The translations under genes were made by a program, and so were the position numbers. The notes below the pieces were generated by a model. It was not told the origin of the DNA and did not search any database. It saw only the letters and a list, made by a program, of their open reading frames with translations. Shown here in pieces: positions 4,238 through 17,574 of a stretch of DNA of 64,000 bases; position 1 is the first letter of the stretch, and each line of letters opens with the position of its first letter. The DNA is from Clostridiales bacterium UBA7568 (GTDB lineage Bacteria; Bacillota; Clostridia; Oscillospirales; CAG-272), in the NCBI GenBank assembly GCA_002479075.1, contig DLLG01000004.1, positions 373,205 to 437,204 on the forward strand. Direction: 5' to 3'.

Positions 4238-4243
4238 TAGAAA

Positions 4244-4510
4244 ACCGACGAGTAAGAGTAGTAGCTTTGCAGGTTGTCTTTCAGAGAGTCGCGGATGGTG
4301 AAATCGCGGCAGATAAACGCAATGTGAATGGACTTATGAGGGCGGCGCGAAAGCCTTTGCAAGTAGTAGCCGACGGAGCGCAACCGTTACAGTGCGGGAC
4401 GTATGACAGTACGTCGCAGAGCCGGGCAAATTTATTTTGCCAATTTGGGTGGCAACGCAGGACACAGAGTCTTGTCCCAATTTTTATTGGGATAAGGCTC
4501 TTTTTTATTC
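4244..4510 (+). promoter_or_regulatory. T-box riboswitch leader, specifier codon UGG (tryptophan)
   Basis: Stem I elements are gacgagtaagagtagtagc (GA/K-turn side), AGAGAG (4293-4298) and distal loop GGTGAAA. The specifier loop is GAA-TGG-A (4326-4332). The T-box sequence is AATTTGGGTGGCAACGCAGG (4442-4461), whose UGGC bulge would pair with a GCCA 3' end. A terminator follows: 14-bp stem agagtcttgtccca / tgggataaggctct (two G-U pairs) plus a T run, 4467-4508. Confidence 0.85.
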
Positions 4511-9062: not shown

Positions 9063-9104
9063 ACTTGAGCGCGAAAAATGTCGGCAAATATTTGAAAAAA
9101 TTTA

Positions 9105-9133
9105 TTGACAAACGCTGTCTTTTGTGATATCAT
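9105..9133 (+). promoter_or_regulatory. promoter of the tRNA-Leu / tRNA-Met pair
   Basis: TTGACA 9105-9110, 17-nt spacer ending in TGA (extended -10), TATCAT 9128-9133. Confidence 0.6.
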
Positions 9134-9157
9134 AATCAGGCAGGCAGCGGAAAACGT

Positions 9158-9246
9158 GCCGGAATGGCGGAATTGGCAGACGCCCGGGACTTAAAATCCC
9201 GTGAGGTTCACCCCTCGTACCGGTTCGACCCCGGCTTCCGGCACCA
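9158..9246 (+). tRNA. tRNA-Leu (anticodon UAA), type II with long variable arm, CCA encoded
   Basis: Acceptor gccggaa / ttccggc, anticodon loop cTTAAaa, T arm ggttcgacc, 3' ACCA. Confidence 0.9.
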
Positions 9247-9253
9247 ATAGTAT

Positions 9254-9331
<78 letters not shown>

Positions 9332-9333
9332 AA

Positions 9334-9473
9334 CAAAAAACAGCCCGTCGGGCTGTTTTTTTGTTTTCTTTGCGGTAAAGAAAAGGGATTTGAACGGGCT
9401 CGGTAGTGAATGAGGCGCCTGCGGCGCGTCAGAGCCGAGCCTGACCGAGCGGCGGCGAGCCGCGAGAATTCAA
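9334..9473. repeat. A-type ~140-bp repeat, copy 1 (terminator hairpin plus structured core)
   Basis: Matches 14740-14878 except at roughly ten positions. Contains the motif ctcgg-TAGTGAATGA-hairpin-TCAGAG-ccgag at 9399-9439. Confidence 0.9.
9335..9362. terminator. hairpin terminator after tRNA-Met (A run / T run, usable on either strand)
   Basis: aaaaaa-cagcccg-tc-gggctg-ttttttt. Confidence 0.75.
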
Positions 9474-9491
9474 ATCCCACCTCCGCAACCA
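9462..9491 (+). repeat. duplicate of the 3' end of the initiator tRNA (T loop + acceptor 3' strand + CCA)
   Basis: ttcaaatcccacctccgcaacca (9469-9491) is identical to 9309-9331. The preceding 7 nt are similar but cannot form a T stem. Confidence 0.9.
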
Positions 9492-9558
9492 TTGAACAGG
9501 TCCCAACTTTCCGACCACCGTAATACGGAGTCGGCAGTTGGGACTTTCGTTTATATGT

Positions 9559-9759
9559 CTATATGTTTTCAGACTCCGTTTCAAATTGAAGCGGAGTTTT
9601 TATGTCCAATTTTCTGTGCGGACGCTCTTCATTGAAAAAATGAATGTATTCTTTGACGACTGCTTCCAATTTAAGCGGTGCTTGATATATTGCGTGATTG
9701 CGTTCATAGTACTTTATAACGGCATCTTTGAATTCTTGCGTGTGGATTTTGGGTGACAT
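9559..9759 (-). pseudogene. C-terminal remnant of an IS3-family (rve) transposase
   Basis: ..LEAVVKEYIHFFNEERPHRKLDIKTPLQFE resembles the conserved C-terminal tail of IS3 OrfB proteins. The ORF is only 66 aa with no catalytic domain upstream in frame. A long hairpin (9500-9546) follows it. Confidence 0.5.
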
Positions 9760-10259
9760 TTTGACCTCTCGGTGATTAATATATCACACAGGAGAGATAC
9801 TGTCGGTTCAGCAGTTGTAAAAAACAACTCCATAATCAAAAGAGCTTTCTGAGCCAGAATATGTACGATGCTGATCGCACCTTCATACTCTCGCAGAATT
9901 TGTGCAACAATCTGTTGCACAAATTCTATGACAGCATCGTCCGTCAAATGGTGGAATGCATCAAGGTATATGCCAATAAGTACATCGAGGTTATCTTCGG
10001 CGGCGGGTATGCGGTGGAAGAAACGGTGGAATAAGTAAAAAAGCAACCTGTACCGACAAGATGGTCGATACAGATTGCTTTTTTCATATTGGAGCGGTCC
10101 TATATAACGCAAATACTCTCCGGCAACGGTTTGGGTCTTGCCATTAAAAGATAAATTGTGGATCTGCACGGAAAAACGATTGGTATTCCCCAATCTGATA
10201 AAGAAGTATGGTTTATTAGGTGTGGTTGCCTTCGGGGGATAATCAATATACAATATCAA
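9714..10259 (-). pseudogene. 181-aa ORF of unknown origin, probably a gene fragment
   Basis: TTG start with no SD, overlaps the IS3 remnant in another frame, and I recognise no motif. Kept only because a 181-codon ORF in lower-GC DNA is unlikely by chance. Confidence 0.25.
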
Positions 10260-10351
10260 AACCAGTGTAGCATATCGGCGCCTACGCTATGTTTTTCTTC
10301 GTTATATTCTTAAAATTCAGAAAACAGTCAAATTCTATTTTCGAAAATCTA

Positions 10352-10380
10352 TTGACAACCTTCATTGACGATAGTATAAT
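10352..10380 (+). promoter_or_regulatory. consensus promoter of the MarR-ABC exporter operon
   Basis: TTGACA 10352-10357, 17-nt spacer, TATAAT 10375-10380. Confidence 0.7.
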
Positions 10381-10424
10381 AATGAATGTTCTAATATTAG
10401 AGTTTCTATGATTGGAGGGTGAAT

Positions 10425-10892
10425 ATGAATAATTGGAACTTCACAGCGTCCAGGATGTTCAACAGTGCGAACCGATTTATTGAAGCGTATCATACTGCGC
10501 TTCAGCCGATCTGCAAGGATACGGGGCTACCGCCTATGGCTGTTGATATTCTGATGTTTCTTGCAAACAATCCAGACAGCAATACGGCGGGAGATATCTG
10601 CCGGTGTCGCGGACTGAAAACCGGAATCGTATCGGTACATGTTGACCGACTTGTTAATGAGGGACTGCTTCTGCGGCAGGATATTCCGGGTGACCGGAGA
10701 AAAACACGGCTCGTCTGCACGGAAGCAGCAAACGGCGTCATTGAAAAGGGTCGCGAGGTGCAAAAGAACTTCGCGCAAAGGCTACTCGTCGGGATGTCGG
10801 ACACGGATATTGAAGTATTCCAACACTGCTTGACCGTTCTCGGCGAAAATATTGACGAGATCCGCAAAAACGGGTTTTCAACGAAAGAATAA
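10425..10892 (+). CDS. MarR family transcriptional regulator
   Basis: ATG 10425 follows GGAGGG. Winged-HTH region PMAVDILMFLANNPDSNTAGDICRCRGLKTGIVSVHVDRLVNEGLLLRQDIPGDRRKTRL. Confidence 0.85.
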   Translation: MNNWNFTASRMFNSANRFIEAYHTALQPICKDTGLPPMAVDILMFLANNPDSNTAGDICRCRGLKTGIVSVHVDRLVNEGLLLRQDIPGDRRKTRLVCTEAANGVIEKGREVQKNFAQRLLVGMSDTDIEVFQHCLTVLGENIDEIRKNGFSTKE

Positions 10893-10908
10893 AAAATAGG
10901 AGATAACT

Positions 10909-12663
10909 ATGTTCAAGTTACTGAAAAATATGCGCCGGAAAGAAAAGATGATGGCGTTGATTTGTCTTTTATTTGTTGTGGTTCAGGTTTACTTTGACCT
11001 GCGTCTTCCGGATTATATGACCGAGCTGACTATGCTCATCAAAACCTCCGGCACCACATCGGATATTGTGAATGTCGGGTTGAAAATGCTCGGTTGCACG
11101 ATGGCGAGCGCCGTACTTGCGATCGCCTGCGGCTTTCTTGCCGCAAAGACCGCATCCGGCTTCAGCTTTGCCGTGCGAGACAAACTGTTCCGCCATGTCA
11201 TTGACATCGGCAGCGAGGAAATGCAAGACTTTTCCATTCCAAGCCTGATTACCCGAACCACCAACGACATCACACAGATTCAGATGATTGTTGCAATGGG
11301 ACTGCAAATGATGATAAAAGCACCCATTATGGCAGTATGGGCAATCATCAAGATTCTCGGAAAGAGCTGGGAACTTTCTGCCGTAACTGCCGCATTCGTT
11401 GTGGTGCTGTTCGTTACGGTCTTGCTGATTATGAGCACTTGTATTCCGCGTTTCCGCCTTGTGCAGAAAATGACCGATAAAATCAACCGCGTTGCCCGTG
11501 AAAACCTGACTGGCATCAATGTGGTACATGCATTCAACGCCGAAGATTTTCAGAACGAAAAGTTTGACGGTCCGAGCCGCGGCATGATGGAGCTGCAAAT
11601 GAAAAACCAAAAGCTGTTTGCGCTGGTGCAGCCGACGATGATGCTTGGAATGAACGGGCTGGCGCTGGCGATCTATTGGCTCGGTGCGGCGCTCGTGAGC
11701 AATATCGCGGTCACCGATATGAGCGCCCGGCTTACGATGTTCAGCGAAGTGTTGGTATTCAGCACCTATGCGACCTATGTTGTGATGTCGTTCATGATGC
11801 TGGCGATGATCTTCATGCTGCTGCCGCAGGCACAGGTATCTGCGGAGCGTATCAATGAGGTGCTGAATCGCAGCGCCTCGATCCGTGAGGGCAGCATCCG
11901 AAACGGGAAAGAAACCGGAACGGTTGAATTTCGGAATGTGTCTTTTCGCTATCCCCATGCATCCGAGGATGAACTGACCGATATTGATTTTAAGGTGAAC
12001 AAGGGTGAAACCTTGGCGATCATCGGTGCGACCGGCAGCGGCAAGACCACCTTGGTCAGCCTGATTCCGCGCTTTTATGACGCAACAAATGGCGAGGTGT
12101 TGGTAGACGGCGTGAATGTCAAAGACTATACATTTGACGCACTGTACGATAAGCTGGGATATGTCACGCAGAAAGCGGTTCTGTTCTCCGGGACCATACA
12201 GGATAATGTGCTTTTCGGTGAAAGTGCCGACGATGCGGACGGGACAAGGCTGAACGACGCAATCGAGCTTTCGCAGGCAAAGGAATTCGTTGACAAATTG
12301 CCTGAAGGTACGGAATACGAGATCGCACAGCTCGGCCGCAATGTGTCCGGCGGTCAGAAACAGCGCCTTTCCATTGCCCGTGCGCTTGCACGAAAGCCCG
12401 AAATTCTGATCTTTGACGACTCGTTCTCGGCACTTGACTATCGAACCGATGCAAAGCTGCGCGAGGGCTTGAATGAACAGCTTCACGGAACCACAAAGAT
12501 CATCGTCGCTCAGCGTATCAGCACAATCCGCCACGCAGACAGAATCATCGTTCTTGACCGCGGTGAGATGGTCGGAATGGGTACACACGAAGAACTGATG
12601 CAGAACTGCGAGGTCTACCGTGAAATCGCCACATCGCAGCTCAGCGCATCCGAGCTTGCATAA
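10909..12663 (+). CDS. ABC transporter ATP-binding/permease protein (half-transporter, multidrug-exporter type)
   Basis: N-terminal 6-TM domain. Walker A GATGSGKTT, signature VSGGQKQRLSIARAL, Walker B ILIFDDSFSALD. Confidence 0.9.
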   Translation: MFKLLKNMRRKEKMMALICLLFVVVQVYFDLRLPDYMTELTMLIKTSGTTSDIVNVGLKMLGCTMASAVLAIACGFLAAKTASGFSFAVRDKLFRHVIDIGSEEMQDFSIPSLITRTTNDITQIQMIVAMGLQMMIKAPIMAVWAIIKILGKSWELSAVTAAFVVVLFVTVLLIMSTCIPRFRLVQKMTDKINRVARENLTGINVVHAFNAEDFQNEKFDGPSRGMMELQMKNQKLFALVQPTMMLGMNGLALAIYWLGAALVSNIAVTDMSARLTMFSEVLVFSTYATYVVMSFMMLAMIFMLLPQAQVSAERINEVLNRSASIREGSIRNGKETGTVEFRNVSFRYPHASEDELTDIDFKVNKGETLAIIGATGSGKTTLVSLIPRFYDATNGEVLVDGVNVKDYTFDALYDKLGYVTQKAVLFSGTIQDNVLFGESADDADGTRLNDAIELSQAKEFVDKLPEGTEYEIAQLGRNVSGGQKQRLSIARALARKPEILIFDDSFSALDYRTDAKLREGLNEQLHGTTKIIVAQRISTIRHADRIIVLDRGEMVGMGTHEELMQNCEVYREIATSQLSASELA

Positions 12664-12676
12664 GGAGGGATGAAAA

Positions 12677-14455
12677 ATGAAGAAAAAAGACAATCAAAAA
12701 GGCATCCGTTCCGCCATTCCGAGAATATCCGGCTATTTGCGTTCCAGCATGGGAATCATTATCGTCGCCTTAATCCTTGCGGCACTCAGTGCCGTTATGA
12801 CAATCATCGGTCCTGATAAGATCGGTCGGATTGCAACGCTGATGTCGGATGGTATTACCGGCAGTATCGACCTTGCGGCAATCGCAAAAATCGGTATTTC
12901 TCTTGCAGTCATCTATATACTCAGCGCACTTTTCAGCTTTATTCAGCACTACACGATGTCTGTCGTCACTCTGAAAATGTCCTACCGTATGCGCGGCGAG
13001 CTGTCTGAGAAGATCAACAAAGTACCGCAGAAGTATTTCAACACCACCTCGCAGGGTGACATTCTCAGCCGCATCACAAACGATGTGTCCACTTTGCAGC
13101 AGGGGCTGACGAACAGTATGCCGACGATCATCAGCGCCGCAACGCAGTTTGTCGGCTGTCTGATCATGATGTTCGTCACCGAATGGCGGCTTGCCCTCAT
13201 TTCCATCGGCGTGACCGTTATCGGTATGTTCCTGACAGTGCTTATCATGTCGAGATCACAGCGTTTCTTCGCAGCGCGGCAAAAGAGCCTTGGTGCGCTG
13301 AACGGGTATGTGGAGGAAATGTATTCCGGTCATGAGGTTGTGCGGATCAGCCGTGCCGAGCGTAAGGTCTGTGCAAAGTTTGACACGCTCAATGCCGCGG
13401 TATACGACGCAAACTGGAAGTCGCAGTTTCTCTCCGGCATGATGCAGCCGCTCATGAACATTATCGGCAACATTGCCTATGTCGCTGTCTGCGTCTTCGG
13501 TTCGGTTCTTGCCATAAACGGCACGATTGAGTTCGGCGTGATCGTTTCCTTCATCCTCTATGTTCGCCTGTTTACCTCGCCGCTGACGCAAATTGCTCAG
13601 GGCATGACCAATATGCAGACAGCATCTGCCTCCGCACACCGCATTTTCGACTTTCTTGAAAGCGAAGAAATGCCCGATGAAAGAGGGAAAACGACCGCTC
13701 TTACCGATGTTCACGGCACGGTCAGCTTTGAGCACGTCCGCTTCAGCTACCCCGATACGCCCGATAAGATAATTATCAAGGATTTCTCCGCCAATGTGCA
13801 TCCCGGTCAGAAGGTTGCTATCGTCGGCCCGACCGGTGCCGGAAAAACAACGATGGTCAACCTGCTGATGCGCTTCTTTGAGATCAACAGCGGAACAATC
13901 AAAATTGACGGTGTTCCGATCTCCGAAATGAGCCGTGAAAATGTGCATAAGTTGTTCAGCATGGTTTTGCAGGACACATGGCTCTTTGAGGGAACGGTCA
14001 GAGAAAACCTCGTCTATAACATGGAGGGTATTACCGACGCGCAGCTTGAAGAAGTCTGCCGAGCCTGCGGACTGGACAAATTCATTCACACGCTGCCGCA
14101 GGGTTTTGACACCGTTCTTTCTGAAAGCGCTAGCATCTCCGCCGGACAAAAGCAGCTTCTCACCATCGCCCGCGCTATGTTACAGAATGCGCCGATGCTC
14201 ATTCTTGACGAAGCCACTTCTTCGGTCGATACCCGTACCGAGCTTCTGATCCAGCGGGCAATGGATGAACTCACGAAAGGGCGCACAAGCTTTGTGATCG
14301 CACACCGCCTTTCCACCATCAAAAACGCCGACCTGATTCTTGTTATGTGCGACGGTGATGTGATCGAGAGCGGAACGCACGAGGAACTGATGCGGCGCGG
14401 CGGATTCTACGCCGATCTTTACAACAGCCAGTTTGAGGATAAAATTGCTTCGTAA
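12677..14455 (+). CDS. ABC transporter ATP-binding/permease protein (heterodimer partner)
   Basis: RBS AAGGAGGG. Walker A GPTGAGKTT, signature ISAGQKQLLTIARAM, Walker B MLILDEATSSVD. Confidence 0.9.
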   Translation: MKKKDNQKGIRSAIPRISGYLRSSMGIIIVALILAALSAVMTIIGPDKIGRIATLMSDGITGSIDLAAIAKIGISLAVIYILSALFSFIQHYTMSVVTLKMSYRMRGELSEKINKVPQKYFNTTSQGDILSRITNDVSTLQQGLTNSMPTIISAATQFVGCLIMMFVTEWRLALISIGVTVIGMFLTVLIMSRSQRFFAARQKSLGALNGYVEEMYSGHEVVRISRAERKVCAKFDTLNAAVYDANWKSQFLSGMMQPLMNIIGNIAYVAVCVFGSVLAINGTIEFGVIVSFILYVRLFTSPLTQIAQGMTNMQTASASAHRIFDFLESEEMPDERGKTTALTDVHGTVSFEHVRFSYPDTPDKIIIKDFSANVHPGQKVAIVGPTGAGKTTMVNLLMRFFEINSGTIKIDGVPISEMSRENVHKLFSMVLQDTWLFEGTVRENLVYNMEGITDAQLEEVCRACGLDKFIHTLPQGFDTVLSESASISAGQKQLLTIARAMLQNAPMLILDEATSSVDTRTELLIQRAMDELTKGRTSFVIAHRLSTIKNADLILVMCDGDVIESGTHEELMRRGGFYADLYNSQFEDKIAS

Positions 14456-14706
14456 AATCGAATTGAAACACAGTCAAGGCGACATAGGCTCACAGATGCT
14501 CCCTGTGAGTCTAACGAAAAAAACAAGCGTTGAGACCGACGCAAACCTTGGATATCGGCACTTGCTTTTTCCTTTTGTTCAAAGGAAGTTGAGATATCTT
14601 TTTCGGTTGACTGCGTTTTTCCGCCTTTCTTATTTCTGCCGATCAAAATCAGTGAAAAAAGTATCAAAAAGCACCGAAATCCCTTATATCATAAGGATTT
14701 TCAGGT

Positions 14707-14740
14707 GATATCTTTTTCAGCGGTGCGATACAAACAAAGC
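14707..14740. repeat. E-box, copy 1 (34-nt conserved box preceding a terminator hairpin)
   Basis: gatatctttttcagcggtgcgatacaaacaaagc compared with 17341-17375 gatatctttttcagtagcgcgattcaaacaaaagc. A third partial copy, gagatatctttttcgg, lies near 14600. Confidence 0.8.
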
Positions 14741-14878
14741 AAAAAACAGCCCGTCGGGCTGTTTTTTGTTTTCTTTACCGCAAAGAAAAGGGATTTGAAC
14801 GGGCTCGGTAGTGAATGAGGCGCCTGTGGCGTGTCAGAGCCGAGCCTGACTGAGCGGCGGCGAGCCGCGAGAATTCAA
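14740..14878. repeat. A-type ~140-bp repeat, copy 2
   Basis: Direct repeat of 9334-9473. The small hairpin ctttaccgcaaag (14773-14785) is the exact reverse complement of ctttgcggtaaag (9368-9380). The motif is at 14804-14844. Confidence 0.9.
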
Positions 14879-14908
14879 CCCCTTTTCAAATTTTAACTTG
14901 TTACATAT

Positions 14909-15050
14909 GTGCTTCTGTTTTGCGTGCGATGGGTATGAATGCACAAAGACAGGGTTATGAGCCCGAAGGGCGAGTAACTCGGAGGGGGAGGCGGTAGTGA
15001 ATGACAGCCTTGGAGGGCTGTCAGAGCCGCCGAACCGACCGCAGCATTTT
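14909..15050. repeat. D-type ~142-bp repeat, copy 1
   Basis: Matches 17391-17534 with about five differences. Carries ggcgg-TAGTGAATGA-hairpin-TCAGAG-ccgcc (14990-15031). Carries gggttatgagcccga (14952-14966), the exact reverse complement of the initiator tRNA anticodon arm at 9281-9295. Confidence 0.9.
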
Positions 15051-15073
15051 CCTATGCAGAGAAAATGCAAGAA

Positions 15074-15192
15074 CGTGAGGTTCAAATCCTTCTCGCCTGC
15101 GGGCTCGGTCACCGTACTGCTCTAAAGTGCCAAAGGGCACTTTATTCACCACCGTACGGCCGTTCCGCCTTGCTCCACTACCTCCGCAACCA
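15074..15192 (+). pseudogene. split copy of the initiator-tRNA 3' half (T arm ... acceptor 3' strand + CCA) interrupted by about 84 nt
   Basis: cgtgaggttcaaatcc (15074-15089) is identical to 9302-9317. acctccgcaacca (15180-15192) is identical to 9319-9331. The intervening 15090-15173 contains the hairpin aaagtgcc-aaag-ggcacttt. Confidence 0.8.
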
Positions 15193-15226
15193 AAAAATCC
15201 TCACTCATATGAGTGAGGATTTTTTT
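15192..15226. terminator. strong bidirectional terminator
   Basis: aaaaaa-tcctcactc-atat-gagtgagga-tttttt. Lies downstream of the split tRNA fragment (+) and of the hydrolase gene (-). Confidence 0.8.
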
Positions 15227-15300
15227 ATTACTCTTTGTTTTTCGCTCCTTTTAGCGCCCGTTTTTCTGAGGCGGAAAGTGCGATGATTTTACGCACCTTT

Positions 15301-16317
15301 TCATCGTTCTCCTTTAATAAAATTGGCAAAGTTGGAAATCAGCTCGCTTGGAAAATCAACTTGAGTATATATTGACGCAGGGTCTGTGGTGTCGATCCTA
15401 TATCCGAAATGACTTATATCGTCGTATACACATATGGATACGTTTGCTGAATCAGAGAAAAGCACTTGCCACAGCTCAATATCTTCATCGAAGGATTGCT
15501 TGTCAGATTTACTGTTAATGATAAGTGTTTTTATATTAGCGTCAGCAATGTTTTTGGCGGTATCCATTTGATTATAGGACACCCAATAATAATCGCTTGC
15601 GCTGTAATAGTAGTATCCTTTTGTAGAGATAGCTGTTACATTTTTAGCGGCTGTTGCATAAGCGATATAGGACTCTTTATTGGCAGGATCAAGCGCAGAA
15701 TATTGATTGCAAGCGATATCTGCAAGATGCCGTGCAGAGCTGTTGAATAGAATGATTCCGTTAATGTCTTCGATGCTTGCAGCAAGCTCGGCAGCAATCT
15801 GTCCTCCAAGGCTGTGACCGAGTAAATACAATCCCGAAACATTTTGTGATTTCAAGTATTCAACGGCGATATTACAATCATCGAGATACTCTTCTTCGAT
15901 GCCGCACTTTATATCGAATTCGGCAGTATAGCTGAAGGTTCTTTTGTCAACTCGCAGAGAATTGATGCCTTCTTTAGCCAGCCCATCGGCAATATCCTTA
16001 AACGGCTTCAATACGCCGAGAGTTTCATCATAATCATTTGGACCGGAGCCCGCAATTAAAAGCACCGCAGGATGCACATTTCCGTCGTTAATATAGGTAT
16101 AAGCAGCGTTTAACTTATAGCCGTCACTTTTTAAAACAAATTTCTTTTCTTCAATACTGTTGCTTTGGGGGGGAGTACCTTGATCGGGAATATTTGTTGA
16201 TTTATCTGCGCTCGACTCGGTATTATCACTTGTTTCTTTCGTATCGGGCACTTCTGTATTGCATCCGGACAGAACAAAGATACACAAAAGTAAGATAATA
16301 GCTATGAATTTTTTCAT
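15301..16317 (-). CDS. alpha/beta hydrolase lipoprotein
   Basis: ATG 16317 with RBS GAGGTG. Signal peptide MKKFIAIILLLCIFVLSGC carries a lipobox. Nucleophile elbow GHSLGG. Confidence 0.8.
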   Translation of the reverse strand: MKKFIAIILLLCIFVLSGCNTEVPDTKETSDNTESSADKSTNIPDQGTPPQSNSIEEKKFVLKSDGYKLNAAYTYINDGNVHPAVLLIAGSGPNDYDETLGVLKPFKDIADGLAKEGINSLRVDKRTFSYTAEFDIKCGIEEEYLDDCNIAVEYLKSQNVSGLYLLGHSLGGQIAAELAASIEDINGIILFNSSARHLADIACNQYSALDPANKESYIAYATAAKNVTAISTKGYYYYSASDYYWVSYNQMDTAKNIADANIKTLIINSKSDKQSFDEDIELWQVLFSDSANVSICVYDDISHFGYRIDTTDPASIYTQVDFPSELISNFANFIKGER

Positions 16318-16322
16318 TCGTC

Positions 16323-17024
16323 TCACCTCGTATTCAAGTCATAATATCCAAGCCAAAGTCCGTCAATTTTCCCACCGTGGAATACGTATGTGATTTTAAG
16401 ACCAAGTTTTGAATATCTGACAAAGCAATATAATTTGTTTGAAAATCTATCATCCGCAACTGTTCTGTCAACCGAAAGATATTCACCAAGTGGGGCTAAT
16501 GTATCCTTACGCACTACAATATATACATCTTTCGGCATATATTCTGCCAAGTGAGGACTTAAATACTCGTAGAGAGTATCGGTAGCTCCGCTTAAAATAG
16601 CGTCTGTGCAAATTCGCGCGATTTCTTTTTCTTCGGTATTCATTACGGAAGAAAGTTGCCAATCCTCAGCAAAGATGTCTTTACCGGATTCAAGCGCGGA
16701 TAAAGCTTCATTCAAGAGGTTGATTTCGCGTATGCGAGATTCAATAGAGGCGTATATTTCCGCACGTTTGGAAAGGACTGCATCTTTCAAATCTATTCCT
16801 TTGGTTTGCAACTCTGCAATTGCCTTTACGGATAGTCCCAATGTACGAAGAACAAGAACATTTTTAATACGAGAAATTTGTTTTTCGGTATATTGTCGGC
16901 GAGATGAGATCCCAACGGTCGTACTTTGAATGATACCTTTTTCTTCATAAAAGCGAAGTGTTCTTGATGTGGTGTCAAGCATCTTGCAAACTTCTGTAAT
17001 ATCGTATAGAGATTTTTGATACAT
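16323..17024 (-). CDS. MerR family transcriptional regulator
   Basis: N-terminal HTH YDITEVCKMLDTTSRTLRFYEEKGII, followed by a coiled-coil and an effector domain. RBS GGGGGTGAGGA. Confidence 0.85.
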   Translation of the reverse strand: MYQKSLYDITEVCKMLDTTSRTLRFYEEKGIIQSTTVGISSRRQYTEKQISRIKNVLVLRTLGLSVKAIAELQTKGIDLKDAVLSKRAEIYASIESRIREINLLNEALSALESGKDIFAEDWQLSSVMNTEEKEIARICTDAILSGATDTLYEYLSPHLAEYMPKDVYIVVRKDTLAPLGEYLSVDRTVADDRFSNKLYCFVRYSKLGLKITYVFHGGKIDGLWLGYYDLNTR

Positions 17025-17041
17025 ATCCTCACCCCCTCTGT

Positions 17042-17072
17042 ATTATATCACTTGACGCAGCGTCAATGTCAA
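17042..17072 (-). promoter_or_regulatory. MerR-type promoter with 19-bp spacer filled by a perfect palindrome
   Basis: On the minus strand, TTGACA (17072-17067), a 19-nt spacer, then TATAAT (17047-17042). The spacer contains TTGACGC-t-GCGTCAA (17052-17066), a 7-1-7 palindrome. Confidence 0.7.
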
Positions 17073-17340
17073 GTGAAAATATTACTTTAATAGAGCTTTC
17101 AAGTATAGAAAAACTATTGACAATACCGAACCTTCGCTAAAATGAAAAAATAGTAAGCCGGCGCCTGCTTCCGGTACTATTATATCACAAAGTAGGGAGG
17201 CATTCCTGGGATATATGAGATTAACTGCTGGCTAAAAAACATAGCAAAAGGACAATTGACGCCGTGGATAAAGCGTGCGAGGGCTGTGTAGCGAACCTAA
17301 AAATGGCAGGTATTCGGTAATGCCTTCCGGATTTGAAAGC

Positions 17341-17375
17341 GATATCTTTTTCAGTAGCGCGATTCAAACAAAAGC
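17341..17375. repeat. E-box, copy 2, followed by hairpin 17371-17398
   Basis: See 14707-14740. The hairpin here is aaagcacc-gtcgaaaggga-ggtgcttt. It differs in sequence from the 14741-14767 hairpin but sits in the same position. Confidence 0.8.
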
Positions 17376-17390
17376 ACCGTCGAAAGGGAG

Positions 17391-17534
17391 GTGCTTTTGT
17401 TTTGCGTGCGAGAGGGTATGAATGCACAAAGACAGGGTTATGAGCCCGAATGGCGAGTAACTCGGAGGGGGAGGCGGTAGTGAATGACAGCCTTGGAGGG
17501 CTGTCAGAGCCGCCGAACCGACTGCAGCATTTTT
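17391..17534. repeat. D-type repeat, copy 2
   Basis: Direct repeat of 14909-15050. The motif is at 17473-17514 and the antisense anticodon-arm segment at 17435-17449. Confidence 0.9.
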
Positions 17535-17574
17535 CTCAAATCTCTTGACAAACGAACGGTAGGTAGGTATAATA
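17528..17574 (+). promoter_or_regulatory. consensus promoter block, copy 1 (shared with 31830-31876)
   Basis: TTGACA 17545-17550, spacer aacgaacggtaggtagg (17 nt), TATAAT 17568-17573. About 47 nt are nearly identical to the block upstream of the YoaP-like gene. Confidence 0.75.

Follow-up and report, generated by a model that had tools for sequence, protein, structure and literature searches.

The window analysed here, a 64,000-nt stretch of contig DLLG01000004.1 from Clostridiales bacterium UBA7568, carries a short motif in several copies, which raises the question of what this motif is and what kind of element it belongs to. In the original prediction, four loci in two repeat families were described, each with the strands TAGTGAATGA and TCAGAG separated by a hairpin. 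The sequences at all four positions (9399-9439, 14804-14844, 14990-15031 and 17473-17514) read as described, including the G-C to G-T change in the inner helix of the second copy and the pair-preserving differences between the families. Repeat comparison recovers both families, with 95% identity between 9357-9473 and 14762-14878 (family A) and 98% between 14931-15053 and 17414-17536 (family B), and the pattern TAGTGAATGA-N10-25-TCAGAG has four + strand matches in the window and 0 in 100 shuffles. The hairpins with an A run and a T run expected beside each copy are present at all four sites (9335-9361, 14740-14768, 15192-15225 and ~17372-17400), and the only ORFs overlapping the copies are short minus-strand ones of 60-92 aa, in keeping with the view that no credible ORF covers the motif. 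The supposed invariance of the loop stands for these four copies but not for a fifth, inverted and diverged copy located by the covariance model on the minus strand (15091-15160; 46.8 bits, E 1.6e-8); it reads TGGTGAATAA / TTAGAG, so that the UGA/UCA pairing is kept as UAA/UUA. The features of the locus are as follows.

9254..9331, +, initiator-type tRNA-Met(CAT), the putative integration target (ARAGORN, Rfam tRNA)
9309-9331, +, direct-repeat copy 1, the last 23 nt of tRNA-fMet, TTCAAATCCCACCTCCGCAACCA (repeat family D6)
9332..9384, +, left part of mini-element E1 (repeat and hairpin analysis)
9335-9361, +, bidirectional terminator hairpin of E1
9364-9384, +, hairpin TTTTCTTT-GCGGT-AAAGAAAA of E1
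9385..9395, +, anti-T arm GGGATTTGAAC, 5' strand of P1 (11-nt match to its own tRNA)
9396..9441, +, core copy A1: P2, internal loop and P3 hairpin (covariance model 68.6 bits, folds)
9442..9468, +, conserved 3' module: TGACCGAG, P4 hairpin CGGC-GGCGA-GCCG, CGAGAA (alignments A1, A2)
9469..9491, +, direct-repeat copy 2, tRNA-fMet 3' end, 100% identical (repeat family D6)
9492..14735, +, E2 cargo (Pfam and same-contig gene calls)
10419-10892, +, MarR gene of the E2 cargo (Pfam)
10909-12663 and 12677-14455, +, two ABC exporter genes of the E2 cargo (Pfam)
14736..14878, +, repeat copy A2, distal end of E2 (repeats, covariance model 65 bits, fold)
14740-14768, +, terminator of A2
14769-14789, +, hairpin of A2 with flipped loop
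14790-14800, +, anti-T arm of A2
14801-14846, +, core of A2
14847-14873, +, 3' module of A2
14909..15073, +, family B copy B1, tRNA-Met variable-loop type (repeat I8, covariance model 47.7 bits)
14952-14966, +, flipped anticodon-arm copy GGGTTATGAGCCCGA of B1
14985-15036, +, core of B1, with the motif at 14990-15031
15074..15192, +, tRNA-fMet 3' part after B1 (repeats D20, D6)
15091..15160, -, fifth core and 3' module, nested in the T-arm of the B1 repeat (cmsearch)
15301..17024, -, cargo between B1 and B2 (Pfam)
15301-16326, -, alpha/beta hydrolase gene (Pfam)
16323-17024, -, MerR regulator gene (Pfam)
17391..17536, +, family B copy B2 (repeats, covariance model 46.2 bits)
17435-17449, +, flipped anticodon-arm copy of B2
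17473-17514, +, core motif of B2

The tRNA-Met(CAT) displays, on reading its sequence, the initiator features C1xA72 and GGG/CCC in the anticodon stem. The arm GGGATTTGAAC is the reverse complement of G53-C63 of this tRNA (GTTCAAATCCC) and is predicted to pair with 9469-9478; direct-repeat copy 2 provides P1 with its 3' strand, and a second terminator lies behind it (~9500-9553). In A1, within whose core the originally described 9399-9439 falls, P2 consists of GGGCTCGG / CCGAGCC and the internal loop of TAGTGAATGA / TCAGAG, and the 3' module runs up to the repeat junction. The left segment of E1 also starts A2, which is cut off after TTCAA (14874-14878), and the E2 cargo includes an 850-nt stretch without a confident gene. 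The window may hold two tandem tRNA-fMet units, an empty 160-bp E1 and a 5.4-kb E2 with MarR and the ABC exporter. The MerR-hydrolase segment is bracketed by family B, a related variable-loop type. The 3' module of B1 has a long P4 (GCATTTTC...GAAAATGC) and ends in AAGAA, and the tRNA-fMet part behind it, from C48 onward, extends from CGTGAGGTTCAAATCC (15074-15089) to CCACTACCTCCGCAACCA (15175-15192), interrupted by the nested inverted fifth copy. B2 is cut within P4 at ~17536, just upstream of the consensus promoter (17545-17573) of a TetR gene. A simple integration model would not predict how the window arrays end: in the truncated units A2 and B2 and without an intact native 3' end of the tRNA. 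Neither an excised circle nor a clean empty site was found for the window locus. The direct repeat of the tRNA-fMet 3' end and the antisense copies of the T-arm and anticodon arm had been missed in the original prediction.

What fold does the motif belong to? It is the tip of a three-way junction composed of P1, of P2-loop-P3, and of TGACCGA-P4-GAGA. Copy A1 folds into this junction with z values of -5.2 (DNA parameters) and -5.6 (RNA parameters), and both strands fold. A selected fold with compensatory helices had been proposed, and both helices indeed covary strongly across more than 100 homologues. In 105 distinct instances among the matches listed, pairing in P3 amounts to 94-100%, positions 2-4 having 3-4 types of Watson-Crick pair, and P2 pairing lies well over the permuted-flank level. 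Paired cells amount to 92.5% against 77.6% after shuffling, a value reached by 0/500 shuffles; double-change cells number 123 against 29.5 in shuffles, and slid controls are paired to only 31-46%. The P4 helix covaries as well, and GAC.GA is invariant in the 3' module (alignments A1, A2). G-U intermediates make up ~1% of cells, and GT mismatches are no commoner than AC. The invariance of the loop among database matches arises partly because the search pattern required the loop sequence; the few pattern-free copies vary at loop positions 1-3 (TGG, AAG, GAA). As judged from its sequence, the K-turn originally drawn for the motif is probably not canonical. The motif shares with K-turns and box C/D an asymmetric GA-rich internal loop between two helices, and GUGAAUGA resembles the C box RUGAUGA; however, its 3' strand is UCAGAG rather than CUGA, a closing G.U pair is required for the canonical K-turn register, and the tandem G.A and UGA/UCA pairs are separated by one additional A.

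The exact pattern occurs at at least 119 genome loci, nearly all in Oscillospiraceae/Clostridia MAGs, and on 18 viral contigs. No Rfam family matches any motif context at gathering or permissive thresholds, which agrees with the earlier failure to name a known RNA, and no protein family recurs near the copies in the loci examined among the matches listed. The copies show random orientation: the counts are 48/43 and 49/51 with respect to the flanking genes, and 35/33 and 29/39 with respect to GC skew or coding strand. In the tRNA type, represented by family A in the window, the 5' arm corresponds to the adjacent tRNA's T-arm in reverse complement, and the stretch from C56 to CCA of that tRNA recurs as the 3' arm. 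At least 29 copies follow a tRNA or tmRNA encoded on the same strand, at a distance of 32-78 nt (four at 229-274 nt), and at least 12 tRNA amino-acid identities plus tmRNA are represented. Counted from G53/T54, the anti-arm matches its own tRNA over 12.4 nt on average, compared with 6.0 nt for other tRNAs, the base opposite G53 being often non-complementary (TCGAAG). In most intact cases the first base of the repeat is C56, at -21 from the tRNA end, and the last lies 0-4 nt beyond CCA; the junction invariably comes after the scaffold (..GAGA|C). Most tRNA-type copies sit behind a terminator; Val-Asp-Gly tRNA operons have the element between their tRNA genes with no terminator, so that it must be co-transcribed in the sense orientation.

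The tRNA type occurs in tandem, with or without cargo, and two loci, L087 (354 bp) and L011, contain identical tandem units. At one tRNA-Val position the element is present in L062 and absent from L067 in another MAG; one phage has three copies in both orientations and its relative with a 98%-identical terminase has none; and independent assemblies break at the repeats. The remaining, non-tRNA contexts are MITE-like and include phage intergenic regions, in either orientation, as well as phage structural operons; a single phage operon can hold both orientations. The arms resemble terminal inverted repeats (16 bp in L017/L073), and among the MITE-like copies neither a target-site duplication nor a clear target is seen. 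The cargo is accessory in nature: besides the MarR/ABC and MerR/hydrolase genes, it comprises a restriction-modification system with an Abi-like ATPase (L003), an AAA ATPase (L104) and an ABC pair (L017). In the loci examined, neither a recombinase nor a transposase, Y1 transposases included, is linked to the element; the single integrase beside a copy (L134/L226) is that of a provirus sharing the tmRNA target, and of 80 related integrase loci, 79 do not have the module. Also overlooked at first were the conserved 3' module, the way the cassettes are built and the multicopy, mobile nature of the element.

How can these observations be brought together? We tentatively propose, at somewhat less than an even chance, that the motif is the conserved core of small, non-coding mobile elements that are present in many copies in Oscillospirales (gut Clostridia) and form a family not described before, and that it serves, as a folded module, in the recombination or mobility of non-autonomous integrative cassettes whose enzyme is supplied in trans. 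The core (P2, asymmetric loop, P3) and the 3' module (TGACCGA, P4, GAGA) cap helix P1, itself built from two variable outer arms. In the tRNA-targeting subfamily the 5' arm is complementary to the T-loop and T-stem of one specific tRNA or tmRNA, and the end of the element falls precisely at T55|C56 within a displaced 3'-end copy of the target tRNA; with such an arm and such an end, it would behave as an integrative cassette. Cassettes ordered as tRNA 3' end, terminator, optional cargo, anti-arm and core would pile up at the tRNA gene like integron cassettes, and in the window the T-loop of the initiator tRNA gene would be where they inserted, with the motif at the ends of two cassettes of accessory genes. 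A single strand of the element, presumably as single-stranded DNA, would fold, and the anti-arm would pair with the tRNA-derived arm or with the sense strand of the target. This pairing would place the crossover point at the foot of the conserved scaffold, and a trans-acting recombinase or transposase would recognise that scaffold. The second alternative of the original prediction, a folded single-stranded DNA recombination site, fits the genomic context best. What is observed directly is the covarying fold, the repeats with their constant left edge, the agreement of arm and tRNA, and the occurrence in tandem arrays, with cargo and in many copies, phages included; the single-strand action, the recombination-site role and the identity of the enzyme are inferred.

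It is less likely, though it deserves some weight, that the module works as RNA, its core being the protein-binding or catalytic scaffold (K-turn-like or otherwise) of an element-borne small non-coding RNA. Such an RNA could be a guide, bringing a recombinase to the target tRNA gene by base-pairing of the anti-arm (cf. bridge RNAs, omega RNAs), or a stability or processing element. The purine-rich asymmetric loops, the covarying helices, the very stable RNA fold (z -5.6) and the sense co-transcription in Val-Asp-Gly operons agree with this; so do the guide-like complementarity of the anti-arm to the target across the junction (GTT|CGA) and the location of that junction always after the scaffold, as in omega RNAs with a flanking-DNA guide. 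Against it, Rfam holds no matching family, no promoter is evident and most tRNA-type copies stand behind a terminator, orientation relative to neighbours is random and one phage operon has both orientations, G-U pairs are no commoner than A-C mismatches, no associated effector gene was found in the loci examined, and the anti-arm base facing G53 is often mismatched. A self-cleaving ribozyme is highly improbable: P1-AAC-P2-(C)UGACCGA-P4-GAGA-P1' resembles the hammerhead core (CUGANGA ... GAAA) in being a three-way junction with conserved purine-rich joining strands (alignments A1, A2; folds), but there is an extra nucleotide in CUGANGA, GAGA replaces GAAA, U16.1 is missing, and no hammerhead or other ribozyme model scores at E<=10.

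Could the copies instead be inert scars, attachment-site-arm remnants of integrase-bearing islands or prophages in tRNA T-loops, left by deletion as with CIME-type elements and carrying the conserved hairpins as terminator-like or insulator-like passengers? T-loop-to-CCA direct repeats are expected of T-loop-integrating tyrosine recombinases, a class reportedly defined by Williams in 2002, an integrase-bearing provirus shares the tmRNA site with a mini copy, and the arrays contain truncated units. This is nevertheless improbable, given that the mini copies are uniform in size and spacer (32-78 nt) over 12 tRNA identities, that identical tandem units exist, that the same core appears in tRNA-unrelated MITE-like contexts and phage structural operons, that the covariation indicates a fold under selection, and that 79/80 related integrase loci are without the module. 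Quite improbable, too, is movement of hairpin elements by an HUH enzyme that is specific for single strands and has one gene elsewhere in the genome, as IS200/IS605 palindrome-associated derivatives or as REP/REPIN-like repeats served by RAYT, with the 5' hairpin foot providing the DNA guide sequence. The elements are multicopy, extragenic, hairpin-shaped and non-coding, the MITE-like type lacks target duplications, GTAG lies 5' of the hairpin and again within GTAGCGAAGCG, the target-complementary arm is directly 5' of the hairpin foot, and the 5' module contains GC-GNA-GC mini-hairpins, which are very stable DNA hairpins. Yet replication- or coding-strand bias is absent (35/33, 29/39), tRNA-type copies have 21-nt direct repeats, the P3 and P4 hairpins are dissimilar, no locus examined has a Y1 transposase, and TAG is exactly the part that varies in pattern-free copies.

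The proposed cassettes have parallels in several known systems. With T-loop islands and prophages that use tyrosine integrases (CIMEs, tycheposon satellites, cargo arrays) they share the tRNA/tmRNA 3' target, the direct repeat from T-loop to tRNA end, an element-borne 3' end that restores the tRNA, tandem accretion, and accessory and defence cargo. They differ in having no integrase inside or near the element, in units down to ~160 bp, in the covarying three-way-junction module and target-antisense arm adjoining the repeat, and in the use of one module at 12 tRNA identities and in tRNA-unrelated contexts. Like CTX-phi-type IMEX, the element lacks its own recombinase, and as in attC and the CTX-phi (+)ssDNA attP, one strand could by analogy fold into a hairpin imitating a duplex target; the CTX-phi attP has two inverted target-like sites ~90 nt apart. 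Conserved structure, covarying stems and arrays at one anchor site also recall integron attC/IMEX, although the target here is a tRNA T-loop rather than attI or dif, no IntI gene lies beside the anchor, GTTCRAA deviates from the R' consensus GTTRRRY, and the conserved part is the hairpin tip instead of the stem. Unlike integron cassettes, those described here have their own promoters, regulators and terminators, and their single-strand activity is putative. MITEs and REP/REPIN repeats are similarly short, non-coding, multicopy and intergenic in either orientation, have terminal-inverted-repeat-like arms, break assemblies and invade phage genomes. In contrast to MITEs, no target-site duplication is seen and one subfamily is tRNA T-loop-specific with cargo; the arms are variable and the interior conserved, the reverse of a transposase-bound MITE.

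Re-reading the sequence at all four window positions gave agreement with the original prediction, and its two repeat families were borne out by repeat finding, the family-A pair (A1 and A2) being 95% identical and the family-B pair (B1 and B2) 98% identical. The pattern TAGTGAATGA-N10–25-TCAGAG matches four times in the window, all on the plus strand, and not once in 100 dinucleotide shuffles. A covariance model, R1, was built from an alignment of homologues (alignment A2, distinct from repeat copy A2); it recovered all four known copies and added a fifth one.

9357–9473, plus strand: family-A repeat with copy A1
14762–14878, plus strand: family-A repeat with copy A2
14931–15053, plus strand: family-B repeat with copy B1
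17414–17536, plus strand: family-B repeat with copy B2
15091–15160, minus strand: fifth copy, found with R1 (46.8 bits, E = 1.6e-8)

The loops of the fifth copy read TGGTGAATAA and TTAGAG, and the proposed UGA/UCA pairs are kept as UAA/UUA. R1 found no further scoring site in the 64-kb window, including beside tRNA-Ala (44330) and tRNA-Pro (63373). Every core, consisting of helix P2, the internal loop and hairpin P3, is followed on its 3′ side by a second conserved module, namely TGACCGA, a short P4 hairpin and then GAGA. The predicted fold of A1 is a three-way junction of P1, P2-loop-P3 and P4, in which the 10-bp helix P1 is formed by the anti-arm (a 5′ arm that is the reverse complement of the T-arm of the adjacent tRNA) and the repeated T-arm. 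This fold scores z = −5.2 under DNA parameters and z = −5.6 under RNA parameters, and the complementary strand of A1 also folds. The K-turn register, as judged by inspection, needs GGU/GCC closed by U·G with AGU as the bulge, and an unpaired A then stands between the G·A pairs and UGA/UCA; a K-turn is defined by a C stem, a 3-nt bulge and, directly, tandem sheared G·A/A·G, with the GA of the 3′ strand abutting the C stem. A separate hairpin differs between the family-A copies: TTTTCTTT-GCGGT-AAAGAAAA in A1 (9364–9384) has the same stem as TTTTCTTT-ACCGC-AAAGAAAA in A2 (14769–14789), the 5-nt loop being reverse-complemented through a small inversion at what is a perfect palindrome.

An exact scan of one genome per species with the pattern GGTAGTGAATGA-N10–25-TCAGAGCC traced the motif across related Clostridia to at least 119 loci, and IMG/VR contributed 18 further loci. 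Among the matches listed, almost all are in gut MAGs of Oscillospiraceae, Acutalibacteraceae or other Clostridia; single MAGs carry several loci, and many matches lie at the end of a contig. L099 and L118 are chance-like. The compensatory helices claimed from the four copies extend well beyond the window, as P2 and P3 covary in 105 distinct instances, measured in positions not constrained by the search pattern. Among the matches listed, P3 is 94–100% paired in these instances, with A-T, G-C, T-A and C-G each frequent at positions 2–4, and the P2 positions beyond GG/CC are 98%, 91% and 72% paired; permuting the 3′ flanks lowers these values to 88%, 51% and 38%. In alignment A2, 92.5% of cells are paired versus 77.6% in shuffles, and double-change cells number 123 versus 29.5; none of 500 shuffles reached the observed values, and slid controls were 31–46% paired. 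P4 covaries as well, for example from GAG..CGAG to GAC..GGAG. The invariance of the loops among database matches is imposed by the exact search pattern. Model searches over 600 kb of listed loci, together with inspection, gave few copies lacking that pattern, and the three informative ones, the fifth window copy included, keep (G/A)TGAAT(G/A)A and differ in the first three loop bases.

The original prediction had missed a link to tRNA genes. Copy A1 lies 70 nt downstream of an initiator-type tRNA-Met gene (tRNA-fMet, 9254–9331; C1xA72, GGG/CCC anticodon stem), whose last 23 nt (TTCAAATCCCACCTCCGCAACCA, 9309–9331) are perfectly repeated at 9469–9491, directly after A1, and ACCTCCGCAACCA occurs again at 15180–15192, after B1. 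Directly 5′ of the A cores stands GGGATTTGAAC, the reverse complement of the tRNA-fMet T-loop and T-stem, and 5′ of the B cores stands GGGTTATGAGCCCGA, the reverse complement of its anticodon arm. Three context types can be distinguished among the loci. Type 1, which includes window family A, consists of copies just downstream of a tRNA or tmRNA gene on the same strand (ARAGORN); its hosts are Leu, Ser, Gln, Ala, Trp, Asp, Lys, Pro, Glu, Met and Arg tRNAs and three tmRNAs. In 29 type-1 pairs, the distance from tRNA end to core is 32–78 nt, with four at 229–274 nt, and the anti-arm matches its own tRNA over 7–24 nt from G53/T54 (mean 12.4 nt), compared with a mean of 6.0 nt for tRNAs of other identity. 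The 3′ arm is the tRNA repeat from C56 to CCA (29 loci), with a left boundary that lies, for most intact cases, at −21 relative to the tRNA end and a right boundary 0–4 nt past CCA unless another tandem unit follows. Since the repeat starts at C56, the junction lies in the T-loop at T55|C56, directly after the ..GAGA of the 3′ module. An invertible switch, by recombination between the two arms, was rejected as the orientation of the core relative to the tRNA is constant in 29/29 type-1 copies.

Type 3 comprises window family B, L011, L093, L110 and L117 and is specific for tRNA-Met. Its repeat starts at C48, which puts the junction in the variable loop (GGAGGT|CGTTGG), and upstream stands a copy of the anticodon arm, which has the sense orientation in L110 and is flipped in L093, L117 and the window. 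The loop of this arm reads TTATGAG at window positions 14952–14966 and 17435–17449 and in L093 and L117, and CTCATAA in L110, which is another hairpin-loop inversion. Type 2, the majority of listed loci, has no relation to tRNA; its arms are GC-rich (CTCCC...GGGAG or GTAGGGG...CCCCTAC), with an GTAGCGAAGCG module 5′ of P2. In one MAG (L017/L073) the type-2 unit is ~330 bp long with 16-bp inverted termini, and a subfamily (L128/L139/L084) of ~190 bp has an internal variable hairpin. In these otherwise near-identical units the hairpin, P5, located between CGAGACGCTG and ACTGAGGGG, is wholly different in sequence in each copy.

The window locus begins with two units at tRNA-fMet.

9332–9468 plus repeat 9469–9491: E1, an empty 160-bp unit directly after tRNA-fMet
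repeat 9469–9491 to 14878: E2, with a second terminator (~9500–9553), cargo, and A2 at its distal end

The A2 repeat is cut after TTCAA, and a 30-nt junction connects A2 with B1, which is truncated at its 5′ end, inside a terminator. After B1 comes the 3′ part of the tRNA from C48; its T-arm is broken by the inverted fifth copy, and CCA plus a terminator (15192–15225) close it. Then come a MerR–hydrolase segment and B2, which is cut inside P4 and abuts the consensus promoter of a TetR gene. The truncated A2 and B2 ends and the nested inversion indicate later rearrangement, and we infer which copy of the repeat is native to tRNA-fMet.

Some smaller features accompany this layout. A repeat, (G)GATATCTTTTTCAG..GCGAT.CAAACAAA, stands at 14695–14738 and 17329–17372 (82% identity), before the terminators opening A2 and B2, and a third, partial copy at 14591–14607 precedes the first by 114 nt; the repeat may be a marker of cassette ends. 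A 26-nt repeat family (..ATTGACAA) includes two perfect TTGACA-17-TATAAT promoters, one at 10352–10380 before the MarR cassette genes and the other at 17545–17573, abutting the truncated B2 end before the TetR gene. The tRNA-proximal part of E2 (9560–10400) comprises ~850 nt without a confident gene, where Pfam, NCBIfam and PHROG give no match for a 181-aa ORF on the minus strand; the stretch holds an inverted repeat with 25-nt arms (9885–9937) and a strong terminator-like hairpin (10038–10083).

Units are stacked in arrays elsewhere, and the comparisons that follow are taken as signs of mobility and of gene carriage. In L087, tRNA-Ser is followed by two identical 354-bp units, each in the order tRNA 3′ end, terminator, ~270 nt, terminator, anti-arm, core and 3′ module, and L011 has two identical type-3 units. 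In the Val-Asp-Gly tRNA operon of L062, one element follows tRNA-Val and another tRNA-Asp, each with its own anti-arm and repeat, while the same operon in L067 has no element after tRNA-Val. Three type-2 copies, in both orientations, occupy intergenic spacers of a bona fide phage, which has genes for capsid, portal and terminase; the element is absent from 80/80 related phages, including one with a 98%-identical terminase, and in a related phage the spacer is filled with other hairpin repeats, so that the boundaries of the phage copy are not readable there. Phage spacers at L143 3920–4330, at L144 1820–2150 and upstream of both terminases are full of other small GC-rich hairpin repeats, among them GACCAGTCCGCAGACTGGTCGTGGGAATCC, of which L144 has two, and GGGGCGCC-GCTTCGCTGCCTAAGA-GGGGCGCC, a solo hairpin that resembles the type-2 5′ module without a core. 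The larger units carry accessory genes, as follows.

Window: MarR and two ABC exporter genes; MerR and hydrolase (Pfam)
L003: methylase, MjaI-type endonuclease and AbiEii-like ATPase (Pfam)
L104: AAA_14/DUF4143 ATPase (Pfam)
L017, 1225–4883: ABC exporter pair bracketed by two element copies

A half-size ABC exporter pair lies between two element copies in two unrelated genomes (window 10909–14455; L017). Three independent assemblies of the window region break exactly at the B repeats. Exact-protein look-ups for an empty window site gave only the same contig or contigs broken at repeats, the contig of a 92% orthologue ends inside tRNA-Leu, and a metagenome scan for the predicted empty tRNA-fMet junction gave no match. 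Such an empty site would read GAGGTTCAAATCCCACCTCCGCAACCA, then the second terminator, and a circular or hairpin junction would read ..GCGAGAA|TTCAAATCCC.. joined to cargo ends.

No recurring protein family and no recombinase cluster emerged when ORFs within 3 kb of the 119 listed loci were clustered, and the largest neighbour cluster, ABC exporters, covers 5 loci among the matches listed. Pfam scans of genes between paired copies gave only cargo or housekeeping genes. The 9.3–17.5 kb segment has no integrase, its genes being MarR, two ABC, hydrolase, MerR and one unassigned ORF, and upstream of the window tRNAs lie a T-box-regulated ABC transporter and two unassigned ORFs with no recombinase match. 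Likewise, no RAYT (Y1 HUH) gene lies within 3 kb of any listed copy. As no linked protein was found, the enzyme would be supplied in trans. On one viral contig (L134/L226) a tyrosine integrase adjoins a type-1 copy. This is a provirus whose attR carries a tmRNA 3′ end, and it is the T-loop of this tmRNA copy that the mini element has entered; linkage to this integrase was rejected because provirus and mini element share the tmRNA target and the integrase lies outside the mini element. Of 80 viral loci with related integrases (34–42% identical, apart from L134's own), only the locus of L134 itself has the module.

A repeat that spans T-loop to CCA and has a constant left edge is the product expected from site-specific integration into a tRNA T-loop, a class reportedly known for tyrosine integrases. 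The antisense arm always matches the adjacent tRNA and crosses the junction (..TCGAA opposite T54, T55), and a conserved 75-nt scaffold stands between arm and repeat; compared with known T-loop integration, the target-antisense arm is the unusual feature. We tentatively favour, at a little less than an even chance, the reading that the motif is a recombination or mobility module of non-autonomous mobile cassettes. One strand would fold into a hairpin that has the crossover point at its foot and a stem mimicking the duplex target between about positions 53 and 65; the scaffold would cap this hairpin, and a recombinase could recognise this scaffold whatever the tRNA. Alternatively, the arm may pair as a guide with the sense strand of the target. 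It is a rather unlikely proposition that integration is nucleic-acid-guided in this manner, with the variable 5′ arm as a programmable guide (DNA or RNA) that base-pairs to the sense strand of whichever target is chosen, for example a tRNA T-arm. The guide would stand at the foot of the conserved scaffold, which would recruit the trans enzyme, and integron-like arrays would be built. If so, such arrays of self-contained accessory-gene cassettes would exist at tRNA genes in Firmicutes, where, to our knowledge, classical integrons are not found.

An RNA function is somewhat unlikely. Elements in tRNA operons without a terminator (Val-Asp-Gly, L062/L067) must be transcribed; however, most type-1 copies stand behind a terminator, and a cis-acting RNA is at odds with the random orientation to flanking genes (48/43 upstream and 49/51 downstream among the matches listed) and with both orientations in one phage operon. 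A cis-regulatory leader or riboswitch, prompted by the SD-like GGAG in the 3′ arms, was rejected since the copies are randomly oriented to neighbour genes, which are themselves unrelated. Single-step G-U intermediates make up ~1% of cells in alignment A2 versus abundant double changes, and G-T mismatches are about as rare as A-C, hence there is no RNA-type wobble signature, in a test of low power because mismatches of any kind are rare. Taken as a whole, the DNA-versus-RNA evidence is not decisive. A self-cleaving ribozyme is very improbable: the joining strands (C)UGACCGA, GAGA and AAC differ from the CUGANGA, GAAA and UH cleavage site required of a hammerhead, and no hammerhead model matches 9100–9600 or 14650–15300 at E ≤ 10. 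That the copies are inert scars is improbable, and so is an HUH-type hairpin repeat. The type-2 5′ module does contain GC-GNA-GC mini-hairpins, a hallmark of DNA hairpins, but an IS200/IS605-like lagging-strand route is opposed by the lack of bias in type 2 (GC-skew sign 35/33, coding strand 29/39).

The original prediction had placed the motif in no familiar RNA class, and no Rfam family matches it in scans of the whole window, the motif regions and related loci. At Rfam 15 gathering thresholds, cmscan of the whole window reported only a T-box leader and four tRNAs, permissive scans of 9100–9600 and 14650–15300 gave only weak terminator-driven matches far below threshold, and related loci of type 2 and every other context type had no match. 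A blastn search with an 81-nt type-2 query had no match in PLSDB plasmids or INPHARED phages, and literature searches by sequence and by keywords returned no relevant description. The T-box leader (4239–4482, 112 bits) precedes an operon for a tryptophan ABC transporter of the TrpX type and is ordinary and unrelated to the motif. A 5S-rRNA-like reading, based on GGTAGTG similarity, received no support from the models.

The element lacks at least one defining feature of each family tested here. Like the tRNA T-loop islands of tyrosine integrases, it has the direct repeat from the T-loop to the tRNA/tmRNA 3′ end (23 nt; 29 loci), but those islands carry the integrase inside the element. Cassette stacking is shared with integrons, tycheposons and CIMEs; however, integron attC needs R′ = GTTRRRY and an R″-L″...L′-R′ inverted repeat, whereas the junction here is GTTCRAA(T), with C at position 4, and no adjacent intI/attI, which an integron needs, was found beside the window tRNAs. 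Spread as multicopy hairpins is a trait that the element has in common with MITEs and REPINs. The element resembles MITEs in being short, non-coding and multicopy (at least 119 loci, several per MAG), with terminal inverted repeats (16 bp in L017/L073) and P1 arms in all types, but differs in having no fixed-length target-site duplication at the unit ends of L017/L073 and L128/L139/L084, and in a tRNA-type repeat that is the tRNA 3′ end with a variable right boundary instead of a fixed duplication. IS200/IS605-derived PATE insert into the lagging-strand template, whereas type 2 has no orientation bias. IS110 bridge RNA and IS1111 seekRNA adjoin a DEDD recombinase, which does not adjoin the element, and have conserved stems with two variable guide loops, whereas the element has conserved loops and variable stems. 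The proposed folded strand is formally like the folded attP of CTX-phi and integron attC. We file the element among non-autonomous integrative or mobile elements, as one whose end module is structured.

If the module moves cassettes, dominant gut Clostridia would have a widespread route of gene flux that has gone unannotated, with efflux pumps, restriction-modification and Abi-like defence genes as cargo so far; the module would explain recurrent MAG assembly breaks, and would offer a compact ~75-nt scaffold whose insertion site is apparently set by the flanking arm. Read in the least exciting way, it still is a structured repeat family that is new and well supported, and it merits a covariance model because it would otherwise be missed or mis-annotated.

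Downstream, at 17.6–28 kb (gene calls of L120), the window arrays give way to a series of unrelated accessory genes: TetR, TraX, C39 peptidase, hydrolases, isochorismatase, deaminase, NUDIX, DUF5131, methyltransferase, GNAT, metallo-beta-lactamase fold and MATE. The island at tRNA-fMet may reach beyond its recognisable modules.
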